DNA of 64,000 nt from the NCBI GenBank assembly GCA_015233165.1, contig JADFYF010000001.1:7762-71761 (forward strand). The letters run 5' to 3'. The DNA comes from Candidatus Omnitrophota bacterium (GTDB taxonomy: Bacteria > Omnitrophota > Gorgyraeia > Zapsychrales > Fredricksoniimonadaceae). Positions 5,660 through 61,599 of the stretch are shown here, piece after piece (within the stretch, counting starts at the first letter, position 1; the number at the start of each line of letters is the position of its first letter). A program made the position numbers and the translations under genes. The notes below the pieces were generated by a model that was not told the DNA's origin, did not search any database, and was given only the letters and a program-made list of their open reading frames with translations.

Positions 5660-6802
5660 ATGAAACGCAATTTGTTGTTAACACCGGGTCCAACTCAAGT
5701 TCCACCGAATCTATGCGCTGCGTTGGGAAAGCCAATCATTCATCATCGGACACCTGCCTTTCAGGATAATATCAAACAGGTGGTCGAAGGTTTGAAGGAA
5801 GTTTATCAAACCAAGAATGATATTTATATTTTAACCTCATCAGGTTCCGGAGCTATGGAAGCGGCTGTCGTTAATTTGGTTTCACCGGGGGATACAGTGA
5901 TTGCGGTTGATGGTGGGAAATTTGGTGAACGCTGGGTTGAATTATGTCAAACCTATAAAGCGAATACCATTGTTCATAAAGTTCAATGGGGGAAGGTTCC
6001 CACAGCAGAAGAGATTAAGAAACTTTTAACAGCTCATCCGGATACCAAGGCTGTCTTTATTACCTTAGCTGAAACATCCACAGGTGTCACACCTCACGTT
6101 AAAGCTATTGGGGACGTTGTCAAAGAGACCAAGGCGGTATTGGTTGTTGACGCTGTTTCTGGTTTGGCTGTACAGGAAATTAAAACGGATGAATGGCATT
6201 GCGATATGGTTGTCTCAGGATCCCACAAAGGTTTGATGTTGCCTCCCGGATTAGCCTTTGTCAGTGCCAGTCCTAAGGCGATTGAGTTGATTAATCAATC
6301 GACGACACCTAAATATTATTTTGATTTGAAAGAGTGTAAGAAGGCGATGGAGAAAACAGATACACCGTTTACTCCGGCGATTGGTGTTTTGATTGCCTTA
6401 GTGGATAGTCTGAATATGATTAAAAAAGAAGGTTTACAGAATATGTTTGCCCGTTATATTCTTTTAGCCAAAGCGACCCGTGCAGGGTGTGCTGCCATTG
6501 GATTAACCATGTTTCCTGATGCGGACTGCGCCACCAATGTGTTAACGGCTGTCAATGTTCCCTCTGGTATCGACGGGGAAAAGTTGACTAAGATCATGCG
6601 TGATACCTATGGAATTACCTTTGCGGGTGGTCAGGATCATCTTAAGGGTAAGGTGATTCGTATGGCTCATATGGGTGCTTTGGATGAATATGATATTCTA
6701 ACTGGATTGGCTTGTTTGGAAAAAGTATTACACCAAATGGGACATAAATTTGAATTAGGGGCAGCCTTGACTGCCGCTCAAAAAGTTCTCAATCAAAAAT
6801 AG
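5660..6802 (+). CDS. Class V aminotransferase (serine-glyoxylate / archaeal-type phosphoserine aminotransferase family)
   Basis: N-terminal LLTPGPT and PLP-lysine region SGSHKGLMLPPG. It lies immediately upstream of serA, suggesting a serC-like role. Confidence 0.7.
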   Translation: MKRNLLLTPGPTQVPPNLCAALGKPIIHHRTPAFQDNIKQVVEGLKEVYQTKNDIYILTSSGSGAMEAAVVNLVSPGDTVIAVDGGKFGERWVELCQTYKANTIVHKVQWGKVPTAEEIKKLLTAHPDTKAVFITLAETSTGVTPHVKAIGDVVKETKAVLVVDAVSGLAVQEIKTDEWHCDMVVSGSHKGLMLPPGLAFVSASPKAIELINQSTTPKYYFDLKECKKAMEKTDTPFTPAIGVLIALVDSLNMIKKEGLQNMFARYILLAKATRAGCAAIGLTMFPDADCATNVLTAVNVPSGIDGEKLTKIMRDTYGITFAGGQDHLKGKVIRMAHMGALDEYDILTGLACLEKVLHQMGHKFELGAALTAAQKVLNQK

Positions 6803-6815
6803 AAATGAGGATGGT

Positions 6816-8402
6816 ATGTATAAGGTTTTAATTAGCGATAAATTAGAAAAAGAAGGTTTGGATATTTTAACGGCTGATAAGAATTTTCAGGTCGATTGCA
6901 AGTTTGGAATTCCAGCAGCTGAATTAAAAAGTATCATCAAAGATTATGATGCATTGATCGTCCGTTCCGGAACTCAGGTCACCGCAGAGATTATTGAAGT
7001 TGCTGATAAGCTGAAGGTGATTGGTCGTGCTGGTGTTGGGTTAGACAATGTCGATTTATCTGCGGCCACTAAAAAAGGTGTTGTGGCGATGAATACTCCT
7101 GCCGGTAATACGACATCCACCGCCGAGCACACGATGAGTATGATCATGGCGTTGTCCCGTAATATTCCGCAAGCTGTTGCTTCTTTAAGAGGTGGTAAGT
7201 GGGAACGTAATAAGTTTACCGGCGTTGAACTTTATGGCAAGACCTTAGGGATTATCGGTTTAGGCCGCATTGGGACAACCGTTGCTAAAATGGCTCAAGC
7301 TTTTGGAATGGTAACGATGGGGTATGATCCTTATCTGTCTGCTGAAATTGCAGCTAAGAATGGTATTCAATTAGCAGAGCTTGATGAAATTTATAAGAGC
7401 GCTGATTACATTACGGTGCATATTCCGAAGACAGATGAAACAACGAATATGATCGGTGACAAGCAGATTGCCTTGATGAAAAAAACAGCGCGTTTAGTTA
7501 ACTGTGCTCGGGGCGGGATTATCGAGGAGAAAGCTTTGATTAAAGCTTTGGAAGAAAAGCGCATCGCGGGCGCAGCGATAGACGTTTATGATGTCGAGCC
7601 TCCTGATTTTACGTCTCCACTTTTTAAATTAGATAATTGCATCACAACTCCTCATTTAGGGGCTTCGACATCTGAGGCTCAGGTGAATGTGGCTATTGAA
7701 ATTGCCCATGCCGTTAAAGATGCTCTTTCAGGTCGAGGAATTCGTAATGCCGCTAATTTCCCCTCGCTGTCTGCCGAAGCTTATAAGGCGATTGAGCCTT
7801 ATTTAGACCTAGCGGATAAAATGGGTAACTTTGCCGGTCAGTTGGTGCAGGGTCGGATCAAAGAAGTAAAGATCACCTACAGCGGCGCTGTGGCTAAAGA
7901 AAAAGTCTCTGCGGTTACGATGGCCGTTGCTAAAGGGTTATTGGCTCCTATCTTAGGTGAAACAGTCAATACCATTAATGCGATGAATCTGATGAAGGAA
8001 CGTGGTATTAATGTTCAGGAAATTGTATCAACCCAAGAAGGGGAGTATGTAAATGCGATCGCTCTGGATGTGAGTACAGATAAAGATCCATTTTCATTAT
8101 TAGGAACACTCTCAAGTAATCAACAGTCTCGTATTGTTAAAATCAATAATGTCTATGTGGAGGCAACTCCGTCGGGGCATATGTTGTTTATCAATAATAA
8201 TGATAAGCCAGGTATTATCGGAGCTATTGGTACTATTTTGGCTCAAGCTAATATTAATATTGCAGGTATTACCTTAGGTCGTGAGAATCAAGAAGGTGTT
8301 GCCGTCAGTGTTGTTAATGTGGATAGTGAAATACCCGAGGCTGTCATTGCTAATTTAAGGCAGACAAAGAATATTTTATTTGTTAAAGCTATTAAGGTTT
8401 AA
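6816..8402 (+). CDS. serA: D-3-phosphoglycerate dehydrogenase (long form with ASB and ACT domains)
   Basis: NAD-binding motif GIIGLGRIG, the 2-hydroxyacid dehydrogenase motif CARGG, and a C-terminal ACT-like region. 528 aa. Confidence 0.9.
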   Translation: MYKVLISDKLEKEGLDILTADKNFQVDCKFGIPAAELKSIIKDYDALIVRSGTQVTAEIIEVADKLKVIGRAGVGLDNVDLSAATKKGVVAMNTPAGNTTSTAEHTMSMIMALSRNIPQAVASLRGGKWERNKFTGVELYGKTLGIIGLGRIGTTVAKMAQAFGMVTMGYDPYLSAEIAAKNGIQLAELDEIYKSADYITVHIPKTDETTNMIGDKQIALMKKTARLVNCARGGIIEEKALIKALEEKRIAGAAIDVYDVEPPDFTSPLFKLDNCITTPHLGASTSEAQVNVAIEIAHAVKDALSGRGIRNAANFPSLSAEAYKAIEPYLDLADKMGNFAGQLVQGRIKEVKITYSGAVAKEKVSAVTMAVAKGLLAPILGETVNTINAMNLMKERGINVQEIVSTQEGEYVNAIALDVSTDKDPFSLLGTLSSNQQSRIVKINNVYVEATPSGHMLFINNNDKPGIIGAIGTILAQANINIAGITLGRENQEGVAVSVVNVDSEIPEAVIANLRQTKNILFVKAIKV

Positions 8403-24816: not shown

Positions 24817-25348
24817 ATGTTTAAGCTGTTTGTATTAGTCATTCTTATTTTATTCTCCATTTTTAAGGTCGTTTTCGCTCAAACAGAGAGAGCATTGCTT
24901 AAGTATCAAATCCTACCGAATTCTTTTGATAAAATAAATATTCCAAAAGATATTTTAGGTGGTCTTGATCCTAAATCTTTATTAGGGCTTAGAGTTGATT
25001 TAAATGCAGATAGGGTCGATGAGTATATTTTAAGAGATGTTGAGTACAGGTGGATGTGGTTATGAAATTTATGATGGAAAAACCCATAGACTTATATCGG
25101 ATAGAATCTTTGGTAGTCCGATATATGTGTTTGATAAAAAAATAAATGATTATAACATTTTAACAGTCTATAGTCATGGGGGTGCAGCTTCGGGGGTTTA
25201 TGAAACCTATGCCTTCGATGGTAAAAATTATTCCTGTGTTTCACTTGTTGATTTAAAGAATGATTCTCTTGATGATTTTTTCAACACTTACGAAAGTGTT
25301 CCTGAGCTTAATAATCAATTTAATCACACTAATAATAAATCAATTTAA
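24817..25348 (+). pseudogene. Secreted hypothetical protein split by an apparent frameshift near 25035-25050
   Basis: ORF 24817-25065 (signal peptide ...DLNADRVDEYILRDVE) and ORF 25037-25348 (STGGCGYEIYDGK...) overlap in different frames. Together they read as one protein. Confidence 0.5.
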
Positions 25349-25386
25349 TCATGTACTAGTTCAAAACCTTTACTATAATACCAATC

Positions 25387-26067
25387 ATGTCTTTTCAAAT
25401 CTTCGATCTAAGCCGCTCCATTACAAAAAAACAAACCGTTGCTATCACAGGCTTAATGCTCATTTCCTTTGTTCTTGTTCATTTGGCAGGGAATTTATTT
25501 ATTTTTGATGGGCCTAAGCCCTTTAATGAGTATGCGGAACATTTAGAGAGATTTGGTATTTTTAAGAAGATTGCAGAATGGGCTCTCTTTCTAGTTTTTC
25601 TTATTCATATTGAACGCGTCACTTCCTTAGTGGTTCAAAATATTCGTGCAGCTGGTGGTCTTAAACGTTACGCGGTGGATAATTCTCGAGGCCCTCGTTC
25701 ATTGGCTACACGATTGATGCCATTTACAGGAACCTTCCTCTTCCTATACTTAATATGCCATTTGTATGATTTTGCCTGGGCGAATGACCAAGGAATTCGT
25801 AGTATGATTAATGGAAAAAGTTTAGGTTTATATGGATTAGTAGTCAATTCTTTTAAAAACCCTATTCATTGCTGGCTGTATGTGGTGGCAATGTATTGTT
25901 TATGTTTGCATTTGACTCATGGGGTGGAAAGTTTCTTTCAAACATTTGGTATTCAAGATAGTCGATTTACTCTTTTGGTTCGTAAGTTAAGTCGAGTATT
26001 TGCTTTAATGATTATGATAGCGTATAGTTCAATTCCTTTATACGTCTTGTACATTTTAAAAATTTAA
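25387..26067 (+). CDS. sdhC: Succinate dehydrogenase / fumarate reductase cytochrome b subunit (single-subunit, 5-TM type B)
   Basis: 226-aa polytopic protein with conserved His residues in TM helices ([23 protein letters not shown]). It lies directly upstream of sdhA/sdhB. Confidence 0.8.
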
Positions 26068-26099: not shown

Positions 26100-28013
26100 A
26101 TGTTAGATTCTAAAATTCCACCGGGTGCAATGAGCGATAAATGGACTGATTTTAAATTCCATGCCAAGCTTGTTAATCCAGCCAATAAACGTAAATATAA
26201 GGTTATAGTCGTCGGAACAGGTTTAGCTGGTGCTTCCGCTGCGGCTTCTTTGAGTGAATTAGGATATCAGGTCGAAAGCTTTTTCTTTCAGGATTCTCCT
26301 CGTCGCGCCCATTCCATTGCCGCTCAGGGTGGTATCAATGCGGCTAAGAACTATCCCAATGATGGCGACAGTATCAAACGATTGTTTTATGATACCGTCA
26401 AAGGTGGGGACTTTCGTTCTCGTGAAGCCAATGTGCATCGTTTGGCTGAAGTCAGTAATAGTATTATTGATCAATGCGTGGCGCAGGGTGTTCCTTTTGC
26501 CCGTGAGTACAGTGGCTATTTAGATAATCGTTCCTTTGGTGGGGCTCAGGTGTCTCGTACTTTTTATGCTCGTGGACAAACAGGGCAGCAGCTTCTACTG
26601 GGAGCTTATCAGGCCTTGATGAAGGAAGTCTCTAAGGGCAGCATTAAGCTTCACTCTCGTACGGAGATGCTAGATTTAGTTGTGATTGATGGCGTGGCTC
26701 GAGGGATTATTACACGTAATTTGGTAACAGGCTTGATAGAGTCACATATGGGGGATGCCGTTGTTCTTGGTACTGGTGGTTATGGAAATGTTTTTTATCT
26801 GTCAACGAATGCCAAGGGAAGCAATGTAACAGCCACCTGGCGTGCTCATAAAAAGGGCGCGTTTTTTGCCAACCCTTGTTTTACTCAAATTCATCCCACC
26901 TGCATTCCTGTCCACGGTGATTATCAAAGCAAGCTAACCTTGATGAGTGAGTCTTTACGTAACGATGGTCGTGTTTGGGTTCCCAAAACTCCTGGGGACC
27001 AACGTAAGCCTACTGATATTCCTGAAGCAGAGCGTGATTATTTCTTAGAAAGAAAATATCCCAGTTTTGGTAACTTAGTTCCTCGGGATATTGCCTCTCG
27101 TAACGCCAAGGAACAGTGTGATGCTGGTCGTGGCGTTGGGGCATCGGGTCAGGCTGTTTATCTGGACTTAGCGGATTCTATTAAGCGCTTGGGTAAGGAA
27201 ACCATTAAGCAGCGTTATGGTAACCTGATTGATATGTATCAGAAGATTGTCGACGACAATCCTTATGAGACACCGATGATGATTTATCCGGCTGTCCATT
27301 ACACCATGGGAGGCTTGTGGGTGGATTATAATTTAATGAGTAATCTCCCTGGGCTGTTTGTGATTGGTGAAGCCAATTTCTCAGATCATGGAGCGAATCG
27401 TTTGGGAGCTAGTGCTCTGATGCAGGGATTGGCAGATGGCTATTTTGTTTTACCTTATACAATTAGTGATTATTTGGCAAAGAATAAACCAGTTGATCCT
27501 AAACTCAAAGAGCATGCGGAATTTAAGAAATGTGAGAAGGATGTAGCGAATTACATCCAGAAGTTGTTGTCCATTAAGGGTAAGCGCACGGTGGATGATT
27601 TTCATCGTCAATTAGGAAAATTGTTGTGGGATAAATGTGGGATGGCACGTACGGAAGCTGGATTAAAGGAAGCCTTGGTACAGATTCCTAAAATTCGTGA
27701 AGAATTTTGGAAGGATGTCAATGTTTTGGGCTCAGGAGAAGAATTTAATCAGGCGTTAGAACGTGCCGGGCGTGTGGCCGACTTCTTGGAATTTGGAGAG
27801 CTTTTGGTTAAAGATGCTTTAGATAGAGCCGAGTCCTGTGGTGGGCATTTCAGAGAAGAGTATCAAACTCCTGAAGGTGAAGCGCTTCGTCGAGATGATT
27901 TGTATTCCTATGTGGCGGCCTGGCAGTTTAATGGGGTTGGGCAAGTACCAACCTTACATAAAGAAGAATTAAAATTTGAAGAAGTCCATTTAGCACAGAG
28001 ATCTTATAAATAA
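26100..28013 (+). CDS. sdhA: Succinate dehydrogenase / fumarate reductase flavoprotein subunit
   Basis: FAD motif [12 protein letters not shown], the covalent-FAD His region [10 protein letters not shown], and the C-terminal [10 protein letters not shown]. Confidence 0.95.
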
Positions 28014-28019
28014 ATATTC

Positions 28020-28098
28020 TGTCATTCCCGAATGCTTTTGTCGGGAATCCAGAGATGGCAAACTACTAGGTCCCCGACTAAAACATTCGGGGACGACA
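28020..28098. repeat. 79-bp palindromic intergenic repeat, copy 1 (between sdhA and sdhB)
   Basis: TGTCATTCCCGAATGCTTTTGTCGGGAATCCAGAG...GTCCCCGACTAAAACATTCGGGGACGACA, with termini TGTCA/TGACA. Related copies lie at 30410-30488 (inverted) and 60493-60573. Confidence 0.85.
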
Positions 28099-28104
28099 AA
28101 GATT

Positions 28105-28857
28105 ATGTCCAAAAAAATAAATTTAACACTTAAAGTCTGGCGTCAGAAAAATTGTAAATCTCCGGGTGCTTTTGAAGTTTATGAAGCTAAGGGTATTGAT
28201 ACGGATATGTCTTTCTTGGAAATGCTCGATGTGGTTAATGAGCGTTTGACTAAAGAAAATATAGACCCCATTTCTTTTGACCATGACTGCCGTGAGGGGA
28301 TTTGTGGGACGTGTGGATCTGTAGTTAATGGTCAGGCGCATGGACCTGTAAAAGGAACAACGCTTTGTCAGCTGCATATGCGTAATTTTACCGACGGTCA
28401 GTTGATTGTTATTGAGCCGTTTCGCGCTAAAGCCTTCCCAGTGATCAATGACCTTGCTGTGGATCGTTCATCGTTTGACCGCATTATTCAATCCGGTGGT
28501 TTTATCTCTATCAAAACAGGTCAGGCCCCTGATGCTCATTCCTTGCCTGTTCTTAAGGGTAGATCCGATTCGGCGATGGACGCTGCCCAATGTATTGGTT
28601 GTGGTGCTTGTGTGGCTGCTTGTCCTAATGCTGCCGCAATGCTCTTTGTGTCTGCTAAGGTCTATCATCTTAATATCTTACCTCAAGGGGAACCTGAACT
28701 TAAAACCCGTACCATTAATATGGTCAAACAAATGGATAAGGAAGGTTTTGGTAACTGCTCAAACGAATACGAATGTGAAGCTGCCTGTCCTAAAGAAATC
28801 AGTGTTTCGCATATCGCCCGCCTTAATCAACAACATCGTAAATCTAATTTTACATAA
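28105..28857 (+). CDS. sdhB: Succinate dehydrogenase / fumarate reductase iron-sulfur subunit
   Basis: [2Fe-2S] [10 protein letters not shown]; [4Fe-4S]/[3Fe-4S] motifs [12 protein letters not shown] and CEAACP. Confidence 0.95.
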
Positions 28858-29022: not shown

Positions 29023-30399
29023 ATGTCTTTACCTATTGATAAACAAACTTTAACCAAATACGATGTCGCAGGTCCTCGCTACACCAGCTATCCAACGGCT
29101 CCAGAATGGTCTAAGGAGATCCGTGTTCAAACCTATATTGATAAATTGAAGGATTTTGGACAAAACGACAAGACATTATCGTTGTATATTCATATTCCTT
29201 TTTGTGAAAGTCTTTGCTATTTCTGTGCCTGCAATAAGGTTATTCGGGCTAATGAAGAGAGTGTGGGCGATGAGTTTTTGACACATTTATTTAAAGAGAT
29301 GGAGATGGTCGCTGCTCATATTGGTCCCCGTAAGATGATCCGTCAGTTGCATTGGGGAGGCGGGACACCTACTTATTTATCTGAGGCTCAGATTCAGAGG
29401 CTCTTTGCCAAGATCCAGTCGTTGTTTGATGTTGATTTTGATGGGGAGATTGCCATTGAGGTCGATCCTCGCACAGTTCCTTATAATAAGCTCAAGCTGT
29501 TGCGTGATATTGGCTTTAACAGGATTTCTTTAGGGGTTCAAGATTTTGATGATAAGGTGATGGATGATATCAATCGTATTCAGCCTTTTTCTCAGGTGAA
29601 ACAAATTACTGAGTGGTGCCGTGAGCTTCAGTATGCTTCTATCAATTTTGATGTGGTTTACGGCCTACCGTATCAGACAAGTGAGACATTTAAGAAAACC
29701 ATCGATGCTGTTATTTCTCTGTTGCCAGACCGCATCGCCATGTATAGTTTTGCCTATGTGCCCTGGCTTTCTAAACCTCAGAACAAGTTTAATCTTGAGG
29801 CGATCGCTCTTCATGAGGAGAAGTTAGATATCTTCATTCAGTCCCGCAACAACTTGTTAGAACACGGGTATCAGGCGATTGCCATGGATCATTTTGCGTT
29901 AAAGACGGACGGGATGGCTAAAGCCTTTAATGAGGGGTGTCTGCACCGTAATTTTATGGGGTATACACTTAAACCTGCTGATGAGTTTATTGGTCTGGGG
30001 CCTTCCGCGATTGGTTTTGTGGAAAATACGTATATCCAGAACGTGAAGGTTCTTCCCGAATACTACGCTTTGCTCTCAGAGAACACCTTGCCGGTAGAGC
30101 GTGGTAAGATCTTAACTCAGGATGACCGTATTCGTCAGTGGGTGATTAATCATCTGATGTGTCAGTTTGAAGTGGATAAGGATGAGTTTTTTAAGACATT
30201 TGGATTTGAATTTGAAGATTATTTTATGGAAGAATCCAGCCATCTTCGTAATTGTGTGGAGGATGGTCTTATTAGAGAAGACTATAAGGCCATTAAGGTG
30301 ACAGATCTGGGGCGTATTTTTGTCCGCAATGTCTGTATGGGCTTTGATTGGTATCTGCGTCAGAAAGACGGGCATAAGAGATTTTCTAGGACTGTTTAA
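29023..30399 (+). CDS. hemN: Oxygen-independent coproporphyrinogen III oxidase (radical SAM)
   Basis: Radical SAM cluster motif CESLCYFCAC, HWGGGTPTYL and an HemN C-terminal domain. 458 aa. Confidence 0.9.
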   Translation: MSLPIDKQTLTKYDVAGPRYTSYPTAPEWSKEIRVQTYIDKLKDFGQNDKTLSLYIHIPFCESLCYFCACNKVIRANEESVGDEFLTHLFKEMEMVAAHIGPRKMIRQLHWGGGTPTYLSEAQIQRLFAKIQSLFDVDFDGEIAIEVDPRTVPYNKLKLLRDIGFNRISLGVQDFDDKVMDDINRIQPFSQVKQITEWCRELQYASINFDVVYGLPYQTSETFKKTIDAVISLLPDRIAMYSFAYVPWLSKPQNKFNLEAIALHEEKLDIFIQSRNNLLEHGYQAIAMDHFALKTDGMAKAFNEGCLHRNFMGYTLKPADEFIGLGPSAIGFVENTYIQNVKVLPEYYALLSENTLPVERGKILTQDDRIRQWVINHLMCQFEVDKDEFFKTFGFEFEDYFMEESSHLRNCVEDGLIREDYKAIKVTDLGRIFVRNVCMGFDWYLRQKDGHKRFSRTV

Positions 30400-30409
30400 T
30401 TTTAATAGT

Positions 30410-30488
30410 TGTCACCCCCGAATGTTTTAGTCGGGGGGCCAGAGTTGCTATAACTCTGGATTCCCGACAAAAGCATTCGAGAATGACA
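30410..30488. repeat. 79-bp palindromic intergenic repeat, copy 2 (between hemN and hemE), inverted relative to copy 1
   Basis: Its reverse complement aligns with copy 1 arm for arm. The 35-nt left arm differs at 1 position. Confidence 0.85.
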
Positions 30489-30501
30489 AAAAGGAGAAAA
30501 A

Positions 30502-31506
30502 GTGGCTAAAAATGTAAAGACAACAGAAGAACAAAGTAACTTCTTATTAGCATTTGAAGGAAAGAACAAACAAGTTCCTGTTTGGTTTATGCGTCAAGCG
30601 GGGCGTTATTTGCCTCAATATCAGGCCCTGAAGGCTAAGACTCCCTTAAGAGACTTGTTTCGTAATCCCGAAATTGCAGGTGCGATCACCTTGCAACCTC
30701 TTGAGATTCTTGGGGTGGATGCTGCTATTCTATTTGCCGATATCATGACCATGCCCTCCGGGATGGGATTTGATATCGATTTTGTGGATGGTAAAGGCCC
30801 TGTGATTAGTAATCCTATCTATACCGTGGCGGATCTAAAGCGTTTGGGAAAATATAGCGGACTTGAATATGTGACCCGGACCATTCAGTTGATTAATGCG
30901 GTTCTGCCGCCATCCATTCCTTTAATTGGGTTTGCCGGTTCTCCCTATACCGTTTTAACGTATTTATGTCATAAACAGAATCGTCTGATGTTTGCCGACC
31001 CCAAAGCCTTCCATAAATTTATGGACTTGTTAACAGACAATACGATCACCTATCTTAAACAGCAACAGAAGGCAGGGGTTAAGTCCTTTCAATTGTTTGA
31101 CACTTGGGCTGGCACCTTACGCCATGAAGATTACAAGGTTTTTGTTCTGCCCTATGTGCAGAGAATATTCAATTCTGTGGATCTACCATCCATTTACTAT
31201 CTAAAGAACTGCGCTCATTTGATGGATTTGATGGATAAAAGTGGAGCAGACATGCTTTCCGTTTGTGAAACGGTCAATATTGCCAATATTAAAACAACTA
31301 AAGGTATCCAAGGAAACTTCCTTAACAGCCTGCTCTATGCGGATGAAGCTGTGATAGTTGCTGAAACCAGAAAGCTTCTGAAAGCCGCTAAAGCGAATCA
31401 CCGCAAATACGTTTTTAACTTAAATCATGGTGTGATGCCAGATGTTGATCCCTTGAAGCTGAAGTTGATTGTGGAAGAAGTTCACAATTTTTCCTGGAGT
31501 AAGTAG
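30502..31506 (+). CDS. hemE: Uroporphyrinogen decarboxylase
   Basis: PVWFMRQAGRYLPQY signature. GTG start with an AAGGAG RBS. Confidence 0.9.
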   Translation: MAKNVKTTEEQSNFLLAFEGKNKQVPVWFMRQAGRYLPQYQALKAKTPLRDLFRNPEIAGAITLQPLEILGVDAAILFADIMTMPSGMGFDIDFVDGKGPVISNPIYTVADLKRLGKYSGLEYVTRTIQLINAVLPPSIPLIGFAGSPYTVLTYLCHKQNRLMFADPKAFHKFMDLLTDNTITYLKQQQKAGVKSFQLFDTWAGTLRHEDYKVFVLPYVQRIFNSVDLPSIYYLKNCAHLMDLMDKSGADMLSVCETVNIANIKTTKGIQGNFLNSLLYADEAVIVAETRKLLKAAKANHRKYVFNLNHGVMPDVDPLKLKLIVEEVHNFSWSK

Positions 31507-38052: not shown

Positions 38053-39105
38053 ATGAAAATACTCACAGTAGGTATTAATCATAAAACTTCTTCCATTGAT
38101 TTACGTGAAAAGTTTTATTTGTCGCCCCTGGAACGTGAACTTTTAATTTCAGACTTTAAAACTGATCCCTCTGTAGTATCCGCAGTCATTTTATCTACAT
38201 GTAATCGATGCGAAATATATGCGACAGTTGTCGATGATTGTCAACCCAAGAGTCTTTTGGATAAACTCTTTCGTGTTAAACGTCAGGCCATGAGTTTAGA
38301 CCTTCAGCAAATGTTCTATTTTATAGAGGGAGCTGAAGCGGTTAAACATTTCTTACAAGTTGCTTGTGGGTTAGATTCTTTAATCTTAGGAGAGAAACAA
38401 ATTTTAGGTCAAATTAAAGAGGCCGTGGCTTTATCGAGACAAAACGGTTTAATGGACAAGGTTCTCAATATCCTAACTAATTTTGTTTTAGAGACGGGCA
38501 AGAAAGCGCGTCAAGATACGCAAATTGATTTTGGCGGAGTATCGGTGAGTGCGGCTGCTGTTAATATGGCTAACAACATTTTAGGTGGCCTAGAGGATAA
38601 AACAGTTTTAGTTCTCGGCTCTGGAAAAATGGGACAATTAGCCTTGAATAATTTACAACAGAAAAAGGTTAAGCAGGTGTTTTTAATGAATAGGACAACT
38701 GAAAAAGCTGTTGTTGTCGCCGAGGAATTTAAGGCGGAGTGTGTGCCCTTCTGGAATATGAAGGAAAACTTAGCTAAGGTGGATGTGTGCATTTGTTCCT
38801 CAGGAGCTCCTCATTATTTAATTTCCAAAGATTTAGTTGCCAGTATTATGGCCACACGCTTTACACCTCTAGTGTTGGTCGATATTTCCATGCCACGCAA
38901 TATTGATCCCGCCGTCGCTGAAGTTTCTAATACCCGATTGATCGCCTTAGACGATTTAGATAAAGTCATCGAGGGGAATCTTCAAAAACGCAAGGATGCT
39001 GTCATCTTGGTCAATAATTTAATTTCACGTAAGGTGGAAGAATTTTATAAAGCGATATCAAAGATTGAAGCACTGAGTTCTGAGAAAATTTTATTATCAA
39101 AATAA
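38053..39105 (+). CDS. hemA: Glutamyl-tRNA reductase, paralogue 1 (350 aa)
   Basis: LSTCNRCEIY (catalytic Cys), GLDSLILGEKQILGQIK and the NADPH fold LVLGSGKMG. Confidence 0.9.
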   Translation: MKILTVGINHKTSSIDLREKFYLSPLERELLISDFKTDPSVVSAVILSTCNRCEIYATVVDDCQPKSLLDKLFRVKRQAMSLDLQQMFYFIEGAEAVKHFLQVACGLDSLILGEKQILGQIKEAVALSRQNGLMDKVLNILTNFVLETGKKARQDTQIDFGGVSVSAAAVNMANNILGGLEDKTVLVLGSGKMGQLALNNLQQKKVKQVFLMNRTTEKAVVVAEEFKAECVPFWNMKENLAKVDVCICSSGAPHYLISKDLVASIMATRFTPLVLVDISMPRNIDPAVAEVSNTRLIALDDLDKVIEGNLQKRKDAVILVNNLISRKVEEFYKAISKIEALSSEKILLSK

Positions 39106-39132: not shown

Positions 39133-39411
39133 ATGAAAAGAAAACAAATTATTATTTTAGGAATCGGTTTAATCTTCACAATGATGACTATTCCTGCTCA
39201 AGCGAGTTTATCAGAAGTTAAGAAATACAAAGAGGCGTTTGCTGATGCAAAGCCTAAATGTGTCGAATGCCACGTCGATGCAATGCCTAAGAAGGCGGAT
39301 GGACAGCATGAATTAAATTCCTATGGTAAGGCGGTTGTTGCAGTCGCAGCGCAGCCAACGGCAGATACTTATAAAAAGGTTGGAAGCATTGAAAGTTTTG
39401 GTAAGAAATAA
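39133..39411 (+). CDS. Small secreted monohaem c-type cytochrome, paralogue A (92 aa precursor)
   Basis: Signal peptide ...IPAQA and a single CVECH. The conserved block is YKEAFADAKPKCVECHVDAMPKKADGQHELNSYGKA. GAGGA RBS. Confidence 0.75.
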   Translation: MKRKQIIILGIGLIFTMMTIPAQASLSEVKKYKEAFADAKPKCVECHVDAMPKKADGQHELNSYGKAVVAVAAQPTADTYKKVGSIESFGKK

Positions 39412-45699: not shown

Positions 45700-45996
45700 A
45701 TGAAACGCATTAATAGTCTTTTAGTTCTTTCAACAATTTTATCCGTCGGTGTTTCAAGTAGTTTAGTCCTAGCTAATCCAACAATGATTAAAGCTTATAA
45801 ATCTGTCTATCCTGATGCTAAGCTGAAATGTAATATGTGTCATGTGGATGCCTTACCTAAGAAGGCTGAAGGATCTCATGAATGGAATGCCTATGGTTTA
45901 GCAGTTAAGAAAGCGGCTAAAGATGCTGGCTTAGAACATCCCACAGAAGATACATTTAAAGCTGCGGGCAAGATAGAAGATTTCAAAGGCAAGTAA
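45700..45996 (+). CDS. Small secreted monohaem c-type cytochrome, paralogue C (98 aa precursor)
   Basis: Signal peptide ...LVLA and a single CNMCH. It carries the same YKSVYPDAKLKC..CHVDALPKKAEGSHEWNAYG block as paralogues A and B. AGGAG RBS. Confidence 0.75.
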   Translation: MKRINSLLVLSTILSVGVSSSLVLANPTMIKAYKSVYPDAKLKCNMCHVDALPKKAEGSHEWNAYGLAVKKAAKDAGLEHPTEDTFKAAGKIEDFKGK

Positions 45997-47755: not shown

Positions 47756-48940
47756 ATGATATCTGTTTATCAAGCCGAACATATTGTTTTAAATAGTGTT
47801 AAATCTGCGCCTATTGAAATTGTTCCTTTATCACAGGCGAATGGCCGTTTGTTAAGAGAGCCTATTCGAAGCGACCGGGATCAACCTTCTTTTGATAAAG
47901 CGCTGATGGATGGCATTGCTATTCATAGCTCTAGTTATGAAAAAGGGGTGAGGGAGTTTCCTATTGAAAAGACTGTCGCTGCAGGGGATAAACCTTATAA
48001 ATTAAAGAATCCCGCATATTGTGTGGAAATTATGACAGGAGCCGTTCTTCCCTCGGGTTGTAATGCGGTTATCCCTATGGAACAGGTGGGTATTGAAGGG
48101 GATAATGCAAGTTTAAAGGGGTGGACCCTGGTTAAGCCTCGACAAAATATAAGTTTTAAGGGGGCGGATTCTAAAAAAGGCCAGATGCTCATTAAAGATC
48201 CCTGCCGTCTTTTGACACCTCATATTTCGATTTTGGCCTCTGTGGGTAAGACAAAGGTTAAGGTCAGTAGTATCCCTAATATCGCCATCATTTCCACCGG
48301 TGATGAGCTGGTAGAGATCGATAAACAGCCCAAAGACTATCAAACCAGGCTTTCGAATAGCCATACGCTTAAATCTTTAATCGAGGGAAGCGGTTTAGCT
48401 AAAGGAACAATATTCCACTATCCTGACGACAAGAAAAGGCTTCTTAAGGGGGTAGGTCAGAATTTAAAAGATTTTGATATGTTGATATTAAGCGGTGGTG
48501 TATCTATGGGGCAGTTTGACTATGTTCCTGAAGTTCTAAAAGAGTTGGGAATTAAGGAGCTGTTTCATAAGGTTGCTCAAAAACCAGGAAAACCATTTTG
48601 GTTTGGTAATAGCCGAACAGGTAAGGCTGTCTTTGCTTTACCAGGAAATCCTGTTTCAACTCAAATTTGTGCCTATCGTTTTGTAATTCCATTTTTAAAG
48701 AAAACAGCAGGAATCAAGGTGACACAAGAACTTGTTCAATTGTCTCAAGTGCCTCAAAAACCTGGCGATAATACGGAATTTATACCTGTAAAGATTTCAG
48801 AGAAGAATGGAACTCGTTTTGCTCAGCCTATTCAGATAGGCGGTTCTGGAGATTTTGCGGCTCTAGCGGATGCCGATGGATTTATTGAATATGACCAAAA
48901 TCAAAAATCTTTATGGCCTTATTTTAGCTGGCGGGTTTAG
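47756..48940 (+). CDS. moeA: Molybdopterin molybdenumtransferase
   Basis: MoeA motifs MDGIA, IISTGDEL, LILSGGVSMGQFDYV and LPGNPVS. Confidence 0.85.
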   Translation: MISVYQAEHIVLNSVKSAPIEIVPLSQANGRLLREPIRSDRDQPSFDKALMDGIAIHSSSYEKGVREFPIEKTVAAGDKPYKLKNPAYCVEIMTGAVLPSGCNAVIPMEQVGIEGDNASLKGWTLVKPRQNISFKGADSKKGQMLIKDPCRLLTPHISILASVGKTKVKVSSIPNIAIISTGDELVEIDKQPKDYQTRLSNSHTLKSLIEGSGLAKGTIFHYPDDKKRLLKGVGQNLKDFDMLILSGGVSMGQFDYVPEVLKELGIKELFHKVAQKPGKPFWFGNSRTGKAVFALPGNPVSTQICAYRFVIPFLKKTAGIKVTQELVQLSQVPQKPGDNTEFIPVKISEKNGTRFAQPIQIGGSGDFAALADADGFIEYDQNQKSLWPYFSWRV

Positions 48941-49481
48941 TAAACGAATGGGGCAGGACAAGGCCCTTTTGAATTACCACGGCAAGCCTCAAATTCAACA
49001 CGTTCATGATCTTCTTGAAAGTAACTGCGAGAAGGTTTTTCTTTCCAAACGATCTGATCAGTCAACCTATACAAATTTAATTTCTATCGATGATGATCCT
49101 GGGCTTCTCGGAATTGGCCCCCTAGGAGGGATTCTCTCAGCAATGAAGGCCTATCCTGAAGCGGCTTGGTTAATTATGGCTTGTGATTTGCCTTTTATAA
49201 CTCAAGAGGCTGTGCAAGAGCTTATTAGCTGTCGAAGTACACATAAAATGGCGACAGCGTTTAAAAGCATCTACAATGGCTTACCTGAACCTTTATGTGC
49301 TATTTGGGAATCTACGGCGTATTCTAAAGTTTTAGAATTCAAAGATAAAGGTGTCTATTGTCCCCGTCAGATTCTTATTAATAGTGACGTTTGTTTAATA
49401 GAGCAAAGAAATTCTCGCTGGTTGGATAACGTCAATGATTTAAAAGAATTTAAAGAAGCTATCGATTTCTTTAAGAATTAG
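48891..49481 (+). CDS. mobA: Molybdenum cofactor guanylyltransferase
   Basis: LILAGGFSKRMGQDKALL N-terminal motif. Start chosen at ATG 48891, a 50-nt overlap with moeA; the ORF track start is 48870. Confidence 0.75.
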   Translation: MTKIKNLYGLILAGGFSKRMGQDKALLNYHGKPQIQHVHDLLESNCEKVFLSKRSDQSTYTNLISIDDDPGLLGIGPLGGILSAMKAYPEAAWLIMACDLPFITQEAVQELISCRSTHKMATAFKSIYNGLPEPLCAIWESTAYSKVLEFKDKGVYCPRQILINSDVCLIEQRNSRWLDNVNDLKEFKEAIDFFKN

Positions 49482-49919: not shown

Positions 49920-50978
49920 ATGTTAATTATTGGATTAAACCACAAGACTGCCCCTATCGAAGTTCGTGAGAAGTTCTTTTTAAATCCAGCTCAACAGGAC
50001 CTTTTATTATTAGAACTCAAAAATAATCCTTTGGTCAATGAGGCTTTTGTTCTTTCAACCTGTAATCGGGTGGAGGTTTATTTAAAAAGATCGAATGAGT
50101 CTATTGATCGTGATTTTGTCGTCAGTATGATAGCTAAGGTCAGAAAGACTTCCGTTGACTCTAAGTTAACTCATCATGTTTATAGTTATGAGAATACAGA
50201 GGCTGTGGAACACCTTTTTAGAGTTGCTACAGGATTAGATTCTCTAGTTCTTGGCGAAAAACAAATTTTAGGTCAGCTTAAACATTCTGTAGATCGTGCT
50301 CGTGAACTAGGGTTGTTGTCTAGATATTTTAACATTTTAAGTAATGTGGCTATCCGTACAGGGAAGAAGGCTCAAACAGAAACAGATATCAGTTTTGGAG
50401 GTTCTTCGGTCAGTTGGGCGGCCATTGAAATGGCTAAACAGACCTTAGGGACGTTGGCTGAGAAATCTGTTTTGATTATTGGTGCCGGTAAGATGGGGGA
50501 GTTGGCTTTAACGAATCTTAATAATCATTCTGTCTCCAAGATTTATTTGATGAATCGGACTGGTGAGAAGGCGGATGTTTTAGCTCAACAATATAGAGGG
50601 ATAGCTGTCTCTTTTTGGGATATTAAGGATATTTTAACGGAAGTTGACCTATGTTTTTGCTCTGTAGGGGCACCTCATTACATTTTAGATCAGGAAAAAA
50701 TGGCCCAAATTATGGCCCTTCGTCGTGGACGACGATTGGTTTTGGTGGATATTTCTATGCCGCGCAATATTGATCCTGCTGTAGCCCAAATACCCAACGT
50801 TCATTTAAGCTCTATTGATGCTCTTGATGGAGTCGTTCAGGCCAATATGAAGAAGCGACAAGAGGCTATTTCCCAGGTTAAAGAAATCATCTCTCAGAAA
50901 ATCGTTGAGTTTAATCAGAAATGGGAGAAGCTGCAGTCTTTAAATGATTCTGATTTTTTTGAAATCACTCAATCCTAA
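49920..50978 (+). CDS. hemA: Glutamyl-tRNA reductase, paralogue 2 (352 aa)
   Basis: LSTCNRVEVY, GLDSLVLGEKQILGQLK and IIGAGKMG. It shares LVLVDISMPRNIDPAVA exactly with paralogue 1 and is roughly half identical overall by eye. Confidence 0.9.
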   Translation: MLIIGLNHKTAPIEVREKFFLNPAQQDLLLLELKNNPLVNEAFVLSTCNRVEVYLKRSNESIDRDFVVSMIAKVRKTSVDSKLTHHVYSYENTEAVEHLFRVATGLDSLVLGEKQILGQLKHSVDRARELGLLSRYFNILSNVAIRTGKKAQTETDISFGGSSVSWAAIEMAKQTLGTLAEKSVLIIGAGKMGELALTNLNNHSVSKIYLMNRTGEKADVLAQQYRGIAVSFWDIKDILTEVDLCFCSVGAPHYILDQEKMAQIMALRRGRRLVLVDISMPRNIDPAVAQIPNVHLSSIDALDGVVQANMKKRQEAISQVKEIISQKIVEFNQKWEKLQSLNDSDFFEITQS

Positions 50979-59124: not shown

Positions 59125-59169
59125 ATCGCTTTATTTTTGCAATATAAAAGTCATCTAAGGAGGATTCAA

Positions 59170-60492
59170 ATGTCAGTTAATACAGTATTTGATATCGATG
59201 CAGCCGTTCAAAAGTTAGTTTTAACCGATAATATTAAAGAAAAAGAGACGATTGCCCGTGAAATTCAGGCTCAAGCCAAAGCTAAGGGAGCTTATTTAGC
59301 TTCTATTCAGGATGTCTATATGGCTCGCGGTAAGGGACAGGGAAAGAATTTTACTGTACCGGCCATGAACTTAAGATCTTTAACCTACTTCTTAGCCCGT
59401 GCAATTTTTCGTACTGCTAATAAATTAAAGGCTGGCGCTTTCATTTTTGAAATTGCTAAGTCCGAAATGGGATATACCGGTCAGCCACCCATTGAATACG
59501 TCGGTGTTATTTTAGGTGCTGCAATTAAAGAAAATTATTCCGGCCCCGTATTTATCCAAGGCGATCACTGTCAAATCAAGGCTAGCGCTTATTTTGAAAA
59601 TAAAAATAAGGAAGTGACCGCTTTAAAAGATATGGTGGCTGATTGCGTCGCCGCTGGTTTCTATAATATTGATATTGATTCATCAACCACTGTTAAATTA
59701 GATCGCCCAACCTTAACTGAACAGCAAAGAGATAATTTTGAAGTCTGTGCGGATATAGCTGCTTTTATTCGTAAAATTCAGCCTAAGGGTATTGAGATTT
59801 CTATCGGTGGTGAGATTGGTGAAGTTGGTCATAAAAATAGTACCGTCGAAGAATTAGTAGCTTTTACTGAAGGTTTTAATAAGTCTTTGTCTAAGGGATT
59901 ACATGGTTTAAGCAAGATTTCTGTCCAAACGGGTACTTCCCATGGGGGAACAGTATTGCCTGATGGAACTATTGCTAAAGCTACCGTGGATTTTAAGACT
60001 TTGAAAGATATTTCTGCTGCTGCTCAAAAGCAATTTGGTATGGGGGGGGCTGTTCAGCATGGTGCTTCAACCTTGACTGACGATCAGTTTAATAAATTCC
60101 CTGAAGTTAATACCATTGAAATTCATTTAGCCACCAGCTTCCAGAATAAAACTTTAGACAGCAAATTGTTTCCTAAAGATCTTTATACAAAAATGGTTGA
60201 GTGGACTAAGGTGAATTGTTTAAGTGAACGTAAGGCAACGGATACTGATGAGCAATATATTTATAAGGCTCGTAAACGTGCCTTAGGTCAATTTAAAAAA
60301 GAAATTATGTCTATGCCTTTGAATGTGAAAGAAGGCATTGCGGCTGAATTAGAACATAGCTTTGAATTTCTATTCAAACAACTTAATGTCTCTGACACTA
60401 AGGATTTTGTTGCGTCTATTATCAAACCTGTCGATGTTAAAATTGGTCTTCGTGATACCCAGGCTCATTTAGATGGCGAAGGCGACGATTAA
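59170..60492 (+). CDS. Class II fructose/tagatose-bisphosphate aldolase family protein (long form)
   Basis: FTVPAMNLRS, VFIQGDHCQ, and GGEIGEVG...VQTGTSHGG metal/phosphate-binding-like motifs. Start chosen at ATG 59170 behind a TAAGGAGG RBS. Confidence 0.6.
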   Translation: MSVNTVFDIDAAVQKLVLTDNIKEKETIAREIQAQAKAKGAYLASIQDVYMARGKGQGKNFTVPAMNLRSLTYFLARAIFRTANKLKAGAFIFEIAKSEMGYTGQPPIEYVGVILGAAIKENYSGPVFIQGDHCQIKASAYFENKNKEVTALKDMVADCVAAGFYNIDIDSSTTVKLDRPTLTEQQRDNFEVCADIAAFIRKIQPKGIEISIGGEIGEVGHKNSTVEELVAFTEGFNKSLSKGLHGLSKISVQTGTSHGGTVLPDGTIAKATVDFKTLKDISAAAQKQFGMGGAVQHGASTLTDDQFNKFPEVNTIEIHLATSFQNKTLDSKLFPKDLYTKMVEWTKVNCLSERKATDTDEQYIYKARKRALGQFKKEIMSMPLNVKEGIAAELEHSFEFLFKQLNVSDTKDFVASIIKPVDVKIGLRDTQAHLDGEGDD

Positions 60493-60573
60493 GAATAACT
60501 TTTGTCATGCCCGAATGCTTTAGTCGGGCATCTAGAACTTATCGCAAACCCTGGATCCCCGATAAAAACATTC
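60493..60573. repeat. 81-bp palindromic intergenic repeat, copy 3 (between the aldolase gene and ilvC)
   Basis: TGTCATGCCCGAATGCTTTAGTCGGGCATCTAGAA...CTGGATCCCCGATAAAAACATTCGGGGATGACA. It begins at the first base after the aldolase stop codon. Confidence 0.85.
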
Positions 60574-60606
60574 GGGGATGACAGGAAAAAAATATAAAGG
60601 AACAAA

Positions 60607-61599
60607 ATGGCTAAAATTTATTATGATAAAGATTGCAACATTAATGACATTAAAAATAAAACGGTCGCTGTGGTGGGATATGGAATTCAAGGTCGTGGTC
60701 AGGCTTTGAATTTACGTGACAGCGGTTTGAAGGTTATTGTCGCACAGCGTCCAGGTGGACCTAATTATGACAAAGCCATTCAGGATGGTTTTAAACCCAT
60801 GTCTGTTGAAGAAGCAACCAAGTTGGCGGATGTCATGATTATCTTAACCCAGGATCATCTGCAAGCCGACATCTACCATAAATCCATTGCTCCTTTTTTA
60901 ACCAAGGGCAAGGCATTAGCCTTCTCTCATGGGTTTAATATTCATTTTAAGTTAATCGTTCCTCCTAAGGATGTTGATGTCTTCATGATTGCTCCTAAGG
61001 GACCAGGTTCCTTGGTTCGTCGTCAGTATGAAGAGGGCAAAGGGGTTCCTTGCCTGGTGGCAATTCATCAAAATGCAACGAAGAATGCCTTAAAGATTGC
61101 TTTGGCTTATGCCAAGGGCGTCGGTGGTTCTCGTGCGGGTATCATCCAAACAACCTTCCAGGAAGAAACGGAAACCGATTTGTTTGGTGAACAAGCGGTC
61201 TTGTGCGGCGGCGCTAGTGAATTGATCAAGGCAGGTTTTGAAACCTTGGTGAAGGCTGGTTACCAACCTGAGATTGCTTATTTTGAATGTTTGCACGAAT
61301 TGAAATTGATTGTAGATATCATTTATGAAGAAGGTATTCAGGGAATGCGTAAGAAGGTTTCTGATACCGCTGAATATGGTGATTTGACACGTGGTCCACG
61401 TATTGTGACTGCTAAGACACGTGCTGAGATGCAAAAAATCTTAAAAGAAATCCAAACAGGCAAATTCGCTAAGGAATGGATGGCTGAGAATAAAAACGGC
61501 CGTAAGAACTTCCTTCAAATGCGTAAAGCCGGTGATGCTCACCCGATTGAAAAGGTGGGAGCTCGACTACGTTCCATGATGAGTTGGATGAAAAAATAA
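60607..61599 (+). CDS. ilvC: Ketol-acid reductoisomerase (class I)
   Basis: [23 protein letters not shown] fold, plus FSHGFNIHF and [14 protein letters not shown]. Confidence 0.95.

Follow-up and report, generated by a model that had tools for sequence, protein, structure and literature searches.

Hairpin doublets at three operon junctions of an Omnitrophota genome as probable members of the Ssn-related motif family

The NTS of Neisseria is an oriented hairpin, CGTCATTCCCGCGMAVGCGGGAATCYRG, that forms a subset of the dRS3 repeats and, in broader form, is called the Ssn-related motif, SRM (Chenal et al. 2025, Nat Commun 16:2388, PMC11893778). SsnA, a 94-aa single-domain GIY-YIG protein, binds the NTS only as single-stranded DNA (ssDNA) and the DNA is cut a few nucleotides upstream; Ssn shows no RNA binding and acts on one strand only (PMC11893778). 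In N. meningitidis cleavage is controlled by the three bases that precede the palindrome, and binding depends most on the C that directly follows it (PMC11893778). An ssn gene is defined by a product of about 94 aa with a single GIY-YIG domain of the cd10448 type. The same study reported that ssn genes typically have SRMs on their flanks, demonstrated in Neisseria a role in the restriction of incoming NTS-bearing ssDNA, counted Rickettsia and Wolbachia among the SRM-rich genera, and gave the SRM search sequence HGTCWYN(0-2)YYVSBRHN(0-5)WNVSBRGN(0-2)RNCYNB (PMC11893778). Here we describe three ~80-bp palindromic copies of a repeat located between genes in a 64,000-nt stretch (the window) of a Candidatus Omnitrophota genome (GCA_015233165.1, contig JADFYF010000001.1, positions 7,762 to 71,761), and examine their relationship to this hairpin family.

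Several other short repeats resemble the window copies in part. The neisserial NIME (dRS3-RS-dRS3; Bentley et al. 2007, PMC1797815) also has two inverted ATTCCC-N8-GGGAAT-type hairpins around a variable spacer, and in the surroundings of the gonococcal ssn gene units of forward and reverse orientation follow one another in turn, about 75 nt apart. NIMEs are built into long arrays, include many RS families and are said to be absent outside Neisseria (Bentley et al. 2007, PMC1797815), whereas the elements described here belong to a different phylum and occur singly, each as one doublet with a spacer of 4-38 nt. Repetitive extragenic palindromes (REPs) and their BIME and REPIN forms, together with the REP-associated tyrosine transposase (RAYT), share with our family the hairpin units, the inverted doublets, the lack of target-site duplications (TSDs), the intergenic position within operons, a single-copy enzyme gene flanked by repeats and a presumed recognition of ssDNA; they differ in that the enzyme in our case is a GIY-YIG nuclease rather than an HUH/Y1 transposase and the head is GTC. 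The REP head is typically a GTAG or GTGG tetranucleotide. Correia-type miniature inverted-repeat transposable elements (MITEs) are likewise short and gene-less, carry terminal inverted repeats and lie between co-transcribed genes, but our doublets have no TSD and no DDE transposase partner, and each arm is a self-folding, covarying hairpin. Rickettsia palindromic elements are reportedly readable in frame within protein-coding genes. Our family resembles them in read-through, with a doublet in frame over 27 codons in one related locus and single units in another; the three window copies, in contrast, are all intergenic.

Structure of the three doublets and match to the Ssn-related motif

The three copies in the window were confirmed as real. 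Each consists of two inverted hairpin units of ~33 nt with their TGTC ends outward, and every arm reads on its own strand T-GTC-(8-nt stem)-ATGYTTTWR-(8-nt stem)-C-YAG (6/6). Doublet 1 (28020-28098, 79 bp) lies between sdhA (stop 28013) and sdhB (ATG 28105); its left unit is at 28020-28052 on the + strand (TGTC-ATTCCCGA-ATGCTTTTG-TCGGGAAT-CCAG) and its right unit at 28066-28098 on the - strand (TGTC-GTCCCCGA-ATGTTTTAG-TCGGGGAC-CTAG, read on that strand, as are the right units below). Doublet 2 (30410-30488, 79 bp) separates hemN (stop 30399) from hemE (GTG 30502) and comprises units at 30410-30442 (+; TGTC-ACCCCCGA-ATGTTTTAG-TCGGGGGG-CCAG) and 30456-30488 (-; TGTC-ATTCTCGA-ATGCTTTTG-TCGGGAAT-CCAG, with one stem mismatch); the AGGAG of hemE, at 30492-30496, falls outside it. 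Doublet 3 (60503-60583, 81 bp), between a class-II aldolase gene (stop 60492) and ilvC (ATG 60607), comprises units at 60503-60535 (+; TGTC-ATGCCCGA-ATGCTTTAG-TCGGGCAT-CTAG) and 60551-60583 (-; TGTC-ATCCCCGA-ATGTTTTTA-TCGGGGAT-CCAG). The initial annotation had positioned the first two copies correctly but set the third 10 nt too low, at 60493-60573, and its description of TGTCA...TGACA ends in all copies fails for copy 1, which ends in CGACA.

A covariance model (R1), trained on 83 units from other genomes and on none from the window, was used to search the window. This analysis revealed exactly six matches (46.8-59.2 bits, E 1e-11 to 1e-15; runner-up 13.5 bits), two per copy and one on each strand. 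The left and right units scored 59.2 and 51.9 bits in doublet 1, 48.7 and 46.8 bits in doublet 2, and 54.3 and 58.9 bits in doublet 3. The unit is directional, as the reverse strand of the same arms scored 11 bits or less. Searching with the 17-mer core CCGAATGYTTTWRTCGG gave six window matches with 0-1 mismatch and one more, attributed to chance, with 3 mismatches; about 0.96 matches are expected at up to 3 mismatches, and 0/100 shuffles reached seven. No further or degenerate copies and no other SRM-like hairpin types were identified in the window by a structure-aware scan. Two structural proposals of the initial annotation were upheld. The element occurs in both orientations, with a 38-nt arm of copy 2 being 95% complementary to the left arm of copy 1 and the ATT-stem arm of doublet 2 standing on the right, inverted with respect to doublet 1. 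Each arm also has a hairpin of its own, with 8-bp stems in 6/6 arms and a mismatch in one.

We also compared the hairpin within each arm with that formed between the arms. Folded as RNA, each of the copies gives a single long hairpin (-36 to -47 kcal/mol, z -5.2 to -9.9). As ssDNA, the hairpin of the individual arm has a computed energy of -8.5 to -10.8 kcal/mol in 5/6 arms (-9.0 and -8.9 kcal/mol in doublet 1, -8.5 kcal/mol on the left of doublet 2, -8.7 and -10.8 kcal/mol in doublet 3). The right arm of copy 2 reached only -3.3 kcal/mol (z -1.1) because of a C-to-T change in its stem (ATTCTCGA), and is partly decayed. The stem variants of the two arms are ATT/GTC, ACC/ATT and ATG/ATC in copies 1 to 3, each compensated inside its own arm. 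In other genomes the arms share a stem variant in 12/89 doublets and are identical in 1/89. Among 125 unique units of other genomes, the three stem positions left free by our search pattern (described below) form Watson-Crick pairs in 116, 124 and 121, and as many as four pair types occur. In alignment A2, 98.5% of cells were paired compared with 91.3% in shuffles, and 54 cells were changed on both sides compared with 12.5; the covariation score (0.218 versus 0.065) was reached by 0/500 shuffles and lay above all slid controls. Since compensation occurs within arms and not between them, it is the hairpin of the single arm that is conserved, and not the long one joining the two arms. Selection thus acts on a ~33-nt hairpin whose flanks are asymmetric.

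A literature search on the resemblance of this unit to the neisserial dRS3 led to the Ssn study. In all six window arms, an 8-bp palindrome built on a CCCG/CGGG core is immediately preceded by GTC and immediately followed by C, after which comes a YNB tail. The base after the palindrome, which our search pattern does not fix, is C in 117/125 units of other genomes. Our long-loop unit model gave gonococcal NTS copies 21-22 bits, and in other genomes the long-loop unit is often paired with canonical NTS-type units, such as CTGGATTCCCGCTTTCGCGGGAATGACA. Strict SRM density was 0.87 per 10 kb in unit-bearing loci compared with 0.04 in control loci (~20-fold). The unit thus resembles the NTS/SRM in its head, core and tail (HGTCAY...CCCG-loop-CGGG...ATCYRG), its directionality and its mostly intergenic position. 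It differs from the NTS in its loop, which is 9-11 nt with a conserved ATGYTTTWR in the window type and about 4-6 nt in the NTS, and from the published SRM in occurring predominantly as an inverted doublet of 78-80 bp that stands by itself. The terms REPIN, doublet, Omnitroph- and Planctomyc- are absent from the main text of the Ssn paper (PMC11893778). Judged by sequence, the window copies appear to be members of the Ssn/SRM family with a long-loop type of unit, arranged as doublets and overlooked by the published motif.

Distribution, insertion sites and the associated nuclease gene

One genome per species was scanned for TGTCRNNCCCGAATGYTTTWRTCGGG, an exact 26-nt pattern. This analysis identified the unit in at least 116 genome loci (numbered here with the prefix L), compared with a chance expectation of ~0.07 matches in 596 Gb (20 fixed and 4 two-fold positions, both strands, equal base frequencies). 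The unit family therefore reaches far beyond the source genome, and the condition under which the initial annotation would have been withdrawn, a lack of further copies, does not hold. More than 10 phylum labels occur among the matches listed, including Omnitrophota, Planctomycetota, Ignavibacteriota, Calditrichota, Nitrospirota, Desulfobacterota/'Deltaproteobacteria', Binatia, Dadabacteria, KSB1, Bacteroidota, Elusimicrobiota and Gammaproteobacteria, with Iodobacter arcticus and Alteromonas sp. as cultured hosts. The labels of some metagenome-assembled genomes (MAGs) are doubtful, since L204/L002 (CAZOXU01, 'uncultured Planctomycetales') is syntenic with the Omnitrophota window, with 80% identical HemE. 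The TGTC-outward arrangement, which is also that of the window copies, was found in 89/103 adjacent unit pairs, with a modal length of 78-80 bp. No TSDs were detected in these 89 doublets (k 2-8, boundary offsets 0-4), the counts being equal to the shuffled expectation; the earlier suggestion that the element is MITE-like thus stands for its architecture only. In viral contigs (IMG/VR, L205-L207) the exact pattern occurred three times, on two of 2.9 million contigs, which gives no indication of a phage link.

Close relatives of the source genome with the same gene order were found by HemE search (82-85% identity) and compared at the sdhA|sdhB and hemN|hemE junctions. At sdhA|sdhB, L199, L200 and L202 have TAA-T-ATG, a 1-nt spacer. 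The hemN|hemE spacer is 13 nt in L199 and L200 and 15 nt in L204 (80%), and the genes overlap in L202; in L201 (83%) they overlap at both junctions. Five more distant relatives have an ATGA or GTGA overlap at sdhA|sdhB. An SdhB metagenome scan retrieved only distant relatives (≤73% identity). At 72 measurable metagenome loci the sdhA|sdhB gap was mostly -4 to about 40 nt. Without the element, the window would have 12 nt between sdhA and sdhB and 23 nt between hemN and hemE. The 1-nt, 13-15-nt or overlapping junctions of the close relatives identify the copies at these two places as insertions: both sites are empty in relatives with 82-85% HemE identity, in agreement with the initial annotation, which had the element inserted between operon genes. 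Its broader proposal of a REP-type, gene-less repeat family placed in operon junctions is also supported.

Insertion into coding sequence was observed as well. In L006 (Omnitrophota nzgw308) a doublet at 6637-6720 is read through in frame over 27 codons of a MobA-like NTP_transf_3 gene, and the window ortholog of this gene (48870-49481) is without the doublet. Separately, L202 carries single units at 7590-7612 and 8051-8078, one of the canonical NTS type and one long-loop, inside a called 2269-aa open reading frame (ORF); they translate in frame as VIPAKAGIQ and MSSPNALVGDPD, with no stops.

To identify genes associated with the unit, all ORFs within 1 kb of it were clustered across the 116 listed loci. 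The top recurrent neighbour was a 94-109-aa single-domain GIY-YIG protein in L052, L059 (Omnitrophota), L063 and L082, assigned to GIY-YIG by Pfam. After spurious repeat-spanning ORFs had been set aside, this was the sole real recurrent family; the other small clusters were unrelated housekeeping-type genes, with no transposase among them. The GIY-YIG gene of L082 and that of L059 are each bracketed by a forward and a reverse unit whose TGTC ends point outward. In L052 the start codon of the gene directly adjoins a unit, and in L063 a doublet precedes it and three direct units follow. The encoded proteins share 54-62% identity (E 1e-33 to 1e-41) with the product of the sole 94-aa GIY-YIG gene of N. 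gonorrhoeae, which lies inside an NTS array; the gonococcal locus (L197) was taken from PLSDB NZ_CP119140.1 and NZ_CP119142.1, which are labelled plasmids but are in fact 2.17-Mb chromosomes. The gonococcal protein retains Y6, Y17 and E64, which had been mutated in the work on SsnA (PMC11893778). No GIY-YIG gene of ssn type was found in control loci, and there was no Ssn-specific PDB structure or NCBIfam model. The initial annotation had pointed to a cognate TnpA(REP)/IS200-like gene as the partner; no such gene was found in the window, and neither a Y1/IS200-like nor any other transposase family recurred within 1 kb of the unit in the 116 listed loci, where the recurrent partner is instead an Ssn-family GIY-YIG gene. 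Because ssn lies between two outward-facing units elsewhere, the doublet looks like that cassette minus its gene.

Further arrangements of the unit were noted in other genomes. The three same-strand units downstream of the ssn homologue in L063 (5499-5818) are exactly 146 nt apart, unlike the usual inverted doublet. In L018, L043, L044, L053, L062 and L104 the doublets sit inside a larger palindromic element with TTGCAAAAGT-like outer flanks on both sides, and these conserved flanks suggest composite elements. Near-identical doublets with the spacer CCAGTCCGAGTTTCGCCTGG and similar flanks occur in L026, L032, L036, L041, L047, L094, L098, L107, L113 and L116, in MAGs labelled Binatia, Deltaproteobacteria and Verrucomicrobiia; they have a spurious ORF in common (…SFPHAFSGNPGETRTGPPIKTFGGD…).

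Proposed mechanism and alternative explanations

We consider it probable that each copy is a doublet of two inverted Ssn-related (SRM/NTS) hairpin motifs and a repeat at the DNA level, not a gene-specific RNA element. Under this model, when either strand becomes single-stranded, its 5' unit would fold into an 8-bp hairpin preceded by GTC and followed by C. The folded unit would represent the substrate type of Ssn-family GIY-YIG nucleases and be cut a few nucleotides upstream. The doublet would be the non-autonomous counterpart of the 'forward unit - ssn - reverse unit' cassette, and doublets would have entered short intercistronic spacers of this Omnitrophota genome without target duplication. 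A cognate Ssn, putatively encoded in this genome, would nick just outside the element on whichever strand is single-stranded, and its activity, or host repair or recombination after the cuts, would spread the doublets. Any effect of the hairpins on operon mRNAs would be a by-product. By analogy with Neisseria, a role in ssDNA restriction could also apply to this genome.

Several observations weigh against this model. Ssn, as a GIY-YIG enzyme, is not known to form a covalent intermediate, and to our knowledge neither Ssn nor other GIY-YIG nucleases have a strand-transfer or DNA-joining chemistry. No ssn homologue was found among the ORFs of the 64-kb window, and ssn adjoins the unit in only 4/116 listed loci. 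When the whole doublet is folded computationally as ssDNA, the long inter-arm hairpin competes with the two local hairpins, at about equal energy in copies 1 and 3 and with the long form favoured in copy 2. Unrelated GTAG-headed single palindromes, a different repeat family, occur at sdhA|sdhB in L198, L203 and L204 and at hemN|hemE in L198 (L198 7726-7769 and 9951-10000; L203 2374-2408; L204 1223-1259). With these hairpins at the same junctions in sister genomes, the intercistronic hairpin may itself be under selection. The restriction of Ssn cutting to a site upstream of the forward unit (PMC11893778) is a difficulty for the copying of a doublet. Finally, the published SRM pattern matches 0/6 arms and no place in the window, whereas canonical NTS test sequences do match it. 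The pattern fails on the window arms because an A-T pair closes a longer loop. Relaxing the loop-closing pair (B:V to N:N) recovers 5/6 arms, and additionally allowing G after GTC recovers 6/6; neither relaxation adds other window matches.

The copies could alternatively be selected intercistronic RNA hairpins (a stabiliser, an RNase processing site or a translation decoupler) in the sdh, hem and ilv operons, with the DNA repeat as a mere vehicle; the initial annotation had likewise thought of a stabiliser, a processing site or an attenuator. The predicted RNA hairpins are very stable (z -5 to -10), all three copies lie between co-directional genes with ribosome-binding sites intact, and the GTAG hairpins of L198, L203 and L204, together with other palindromes at sdhA|sdhB in distant loci, show that unrelated hairpins occupy the same junctions. 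However, such fold energies come from any inverted repeat, and compensation acts per arm; that the arms share a variant in only 12/89 doublets is a poor fit to selection for a long RNA hairpin. The unit also occurs in unrelated gene contexts, in many phyla, beside ssn genes and read through within coding genes, Ssn does not bind RNA (PMC11893778), and close relatives function with 1-nt and overlapping junctions. We regard this explanation as unlikely. No terminators or promoters were called at the three copies, and no T-run follows them. Rfam gave no match at gathering thresholds, only generic hairpin matches to miRNA precursor models far below threshold. One candidate, Wolbachia sRNA 46 (window 28003-28114), was rejected as a family at 25.8 bits against a gathering score of 65.3; as Wolbachia is SRM-rich in the Ssn paper, this sRNA may itself overlap an SRM doublet.

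Movement of a classical REP/REPIN by a RAYT (TnpA-REP, an IS200/IS605-like Y1 transposase) would fit the architecture of two inverted hairpins, intergenic and without TSD, and the enzyme might lie outside the window. In the window itself no Y1/HUH transposase was found, although a RAYT elsewhere in the genome would be missed. No Y1/HUH family recurred within 1 kb of the unit in the 116 listed loci, where the Ssn-type GIY-YIG did. RAYT-bound REPs reportedly carry GTAG or GTGG heads as a rule, whereas the window arms have TGTC followed by A or G (6/6) and an NTS-type core; the GTAG hairpins of the sister genomes are a different family. We therefore consider a RAYT very unlikely as the agent. Even less probable is an origin as MITEs of a DDE-transposase insertion sequence with terminal inverted repeats starting in TGTCA. 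The TGTCA...TGACA ends, the fairly uniform length of 78-80 bp and the presence/absence polymorphism between relatives would suit such elements, but none of the 89 doublets has a 2-8-bp TSD at any boundary offset, each supposed terminal repeat is itself a covarying hairpin, no transposase family is recurrent near units in the 116 listed loci, and the full-length counterpart carries a 94-aa GIY-YIG gene and not a transposase. Chance palindromes or an assembly artefact, for which only the low coverage of some related MAGs could be cited, have a negligible probability and are already refuted by the shuffles (0/100 reaching the observed count), the six model matches with E below 1e-11, and the exact 26-nt pattern in at least 116 independent loci.

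A more speculative extension of the Ssn-related doublet model, which we hold to be possible but doubtful, is that SRM doublets are REPIN-like non-autonomous mobile elements propagated in trans by a GIY-YIG ssDNA nuclease, with one long-loop type spread across more than 10 nominal phyla and tolerated in frame in proteins. If true, this would constitute a new nuclease-plus-repair route of repeat proliferation. The resemblance of the doublet to the unit-ssn-unit cassette, the absence of TSDs and the clean empty sites make the multiplication of Ssn-linked repeats directly testable. The published SRM pattern misses at least one abundant unit type conserved across phyla, so that Ssn-linked repeats are under-counted. 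A covariance model and a candidate substrate/enzyme pair (the L059 and L082 cassettes) are now in hand; many more Ssn/substrate pairs need to be characterised for the development of ssDNA tools (PMC11893778). For genome annotation, the units yield spurious ORFs and in-frame inserts (peptides VIPAKAGIQ and SFPNAF.GNP), and masking is advised.

Genomic context and minor observations

The genes at all three junctions bear out the names given to them in the initial annotation. Doublet 1 follows sdhA, encoding the flavoprotein (26100-28013; Pfam FAD_binding_2 and Succ_DH_flav_C), and precedes sdhB, encoding the Fe-S subunit (28105-28857; Fer2_3/Fer4). Doublet 2 stands between a hemN-type radical SAM gene (29023-30399; Radical_SAM and HemN_C) and hemE (30502-31506), whose product is 100% identical to an NCBI protein of a Candidatus Omnitrophica MAG. 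Doublet 3 stands between a class-II aldolase family gene (59137-60492; F_bP_aldolase) and ilvC (60607-61599; KARI_N and KARI_C). All six genes are on the + strand; each copy thus lies between co-directional genes, with ribosome-binding sites kept or outside the elements. Pfam analysis of all long window ORFs identified no GIY-YIG, RAYT, Y1_Tnp or other transposase gene, and all were housekeeping genes. Stretches of the window are collinear with the Omnitrophota contigs L006, L042 and L103 at 34-85% protein identity.

At sdhA|sdhB, the distant metagenome contigs L121, L133, L138 and L140 carry yet other inserts, palindromic or repeated and unrelated to the unit. Intercistronic junctions of this kind may be hot spots for hairpin repeats of unrelated families, or places where such repeats are selected.

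The remaining observations concern the window at large. All long ORFs with a Pfam match are on the + strand (1-64000), and GC skew is positive in 16/16 window bins (+0.07 to +0.25). Two glutamyl-tRNA reductase (hemA) paralogs are present, at 38053-39105 and 49920-50978, together with a pair of ~95-aa ORFs at 39133-39411 and 45700-45996 that have in common a 95-nt segment with 72% identity; both pairs lie amid multihaem cytochrome, Rieske/cytochrome b, ResB/CcsA and haem-biosynthesis genes. At 24817-25508 the window has three short ORFs that overlap in different frames and lack a Pfam match, in the place where L198 and L199 have a 171-173-aa PEBP (PF01161) gene; this segment may be a frameshifted or decayed gene.

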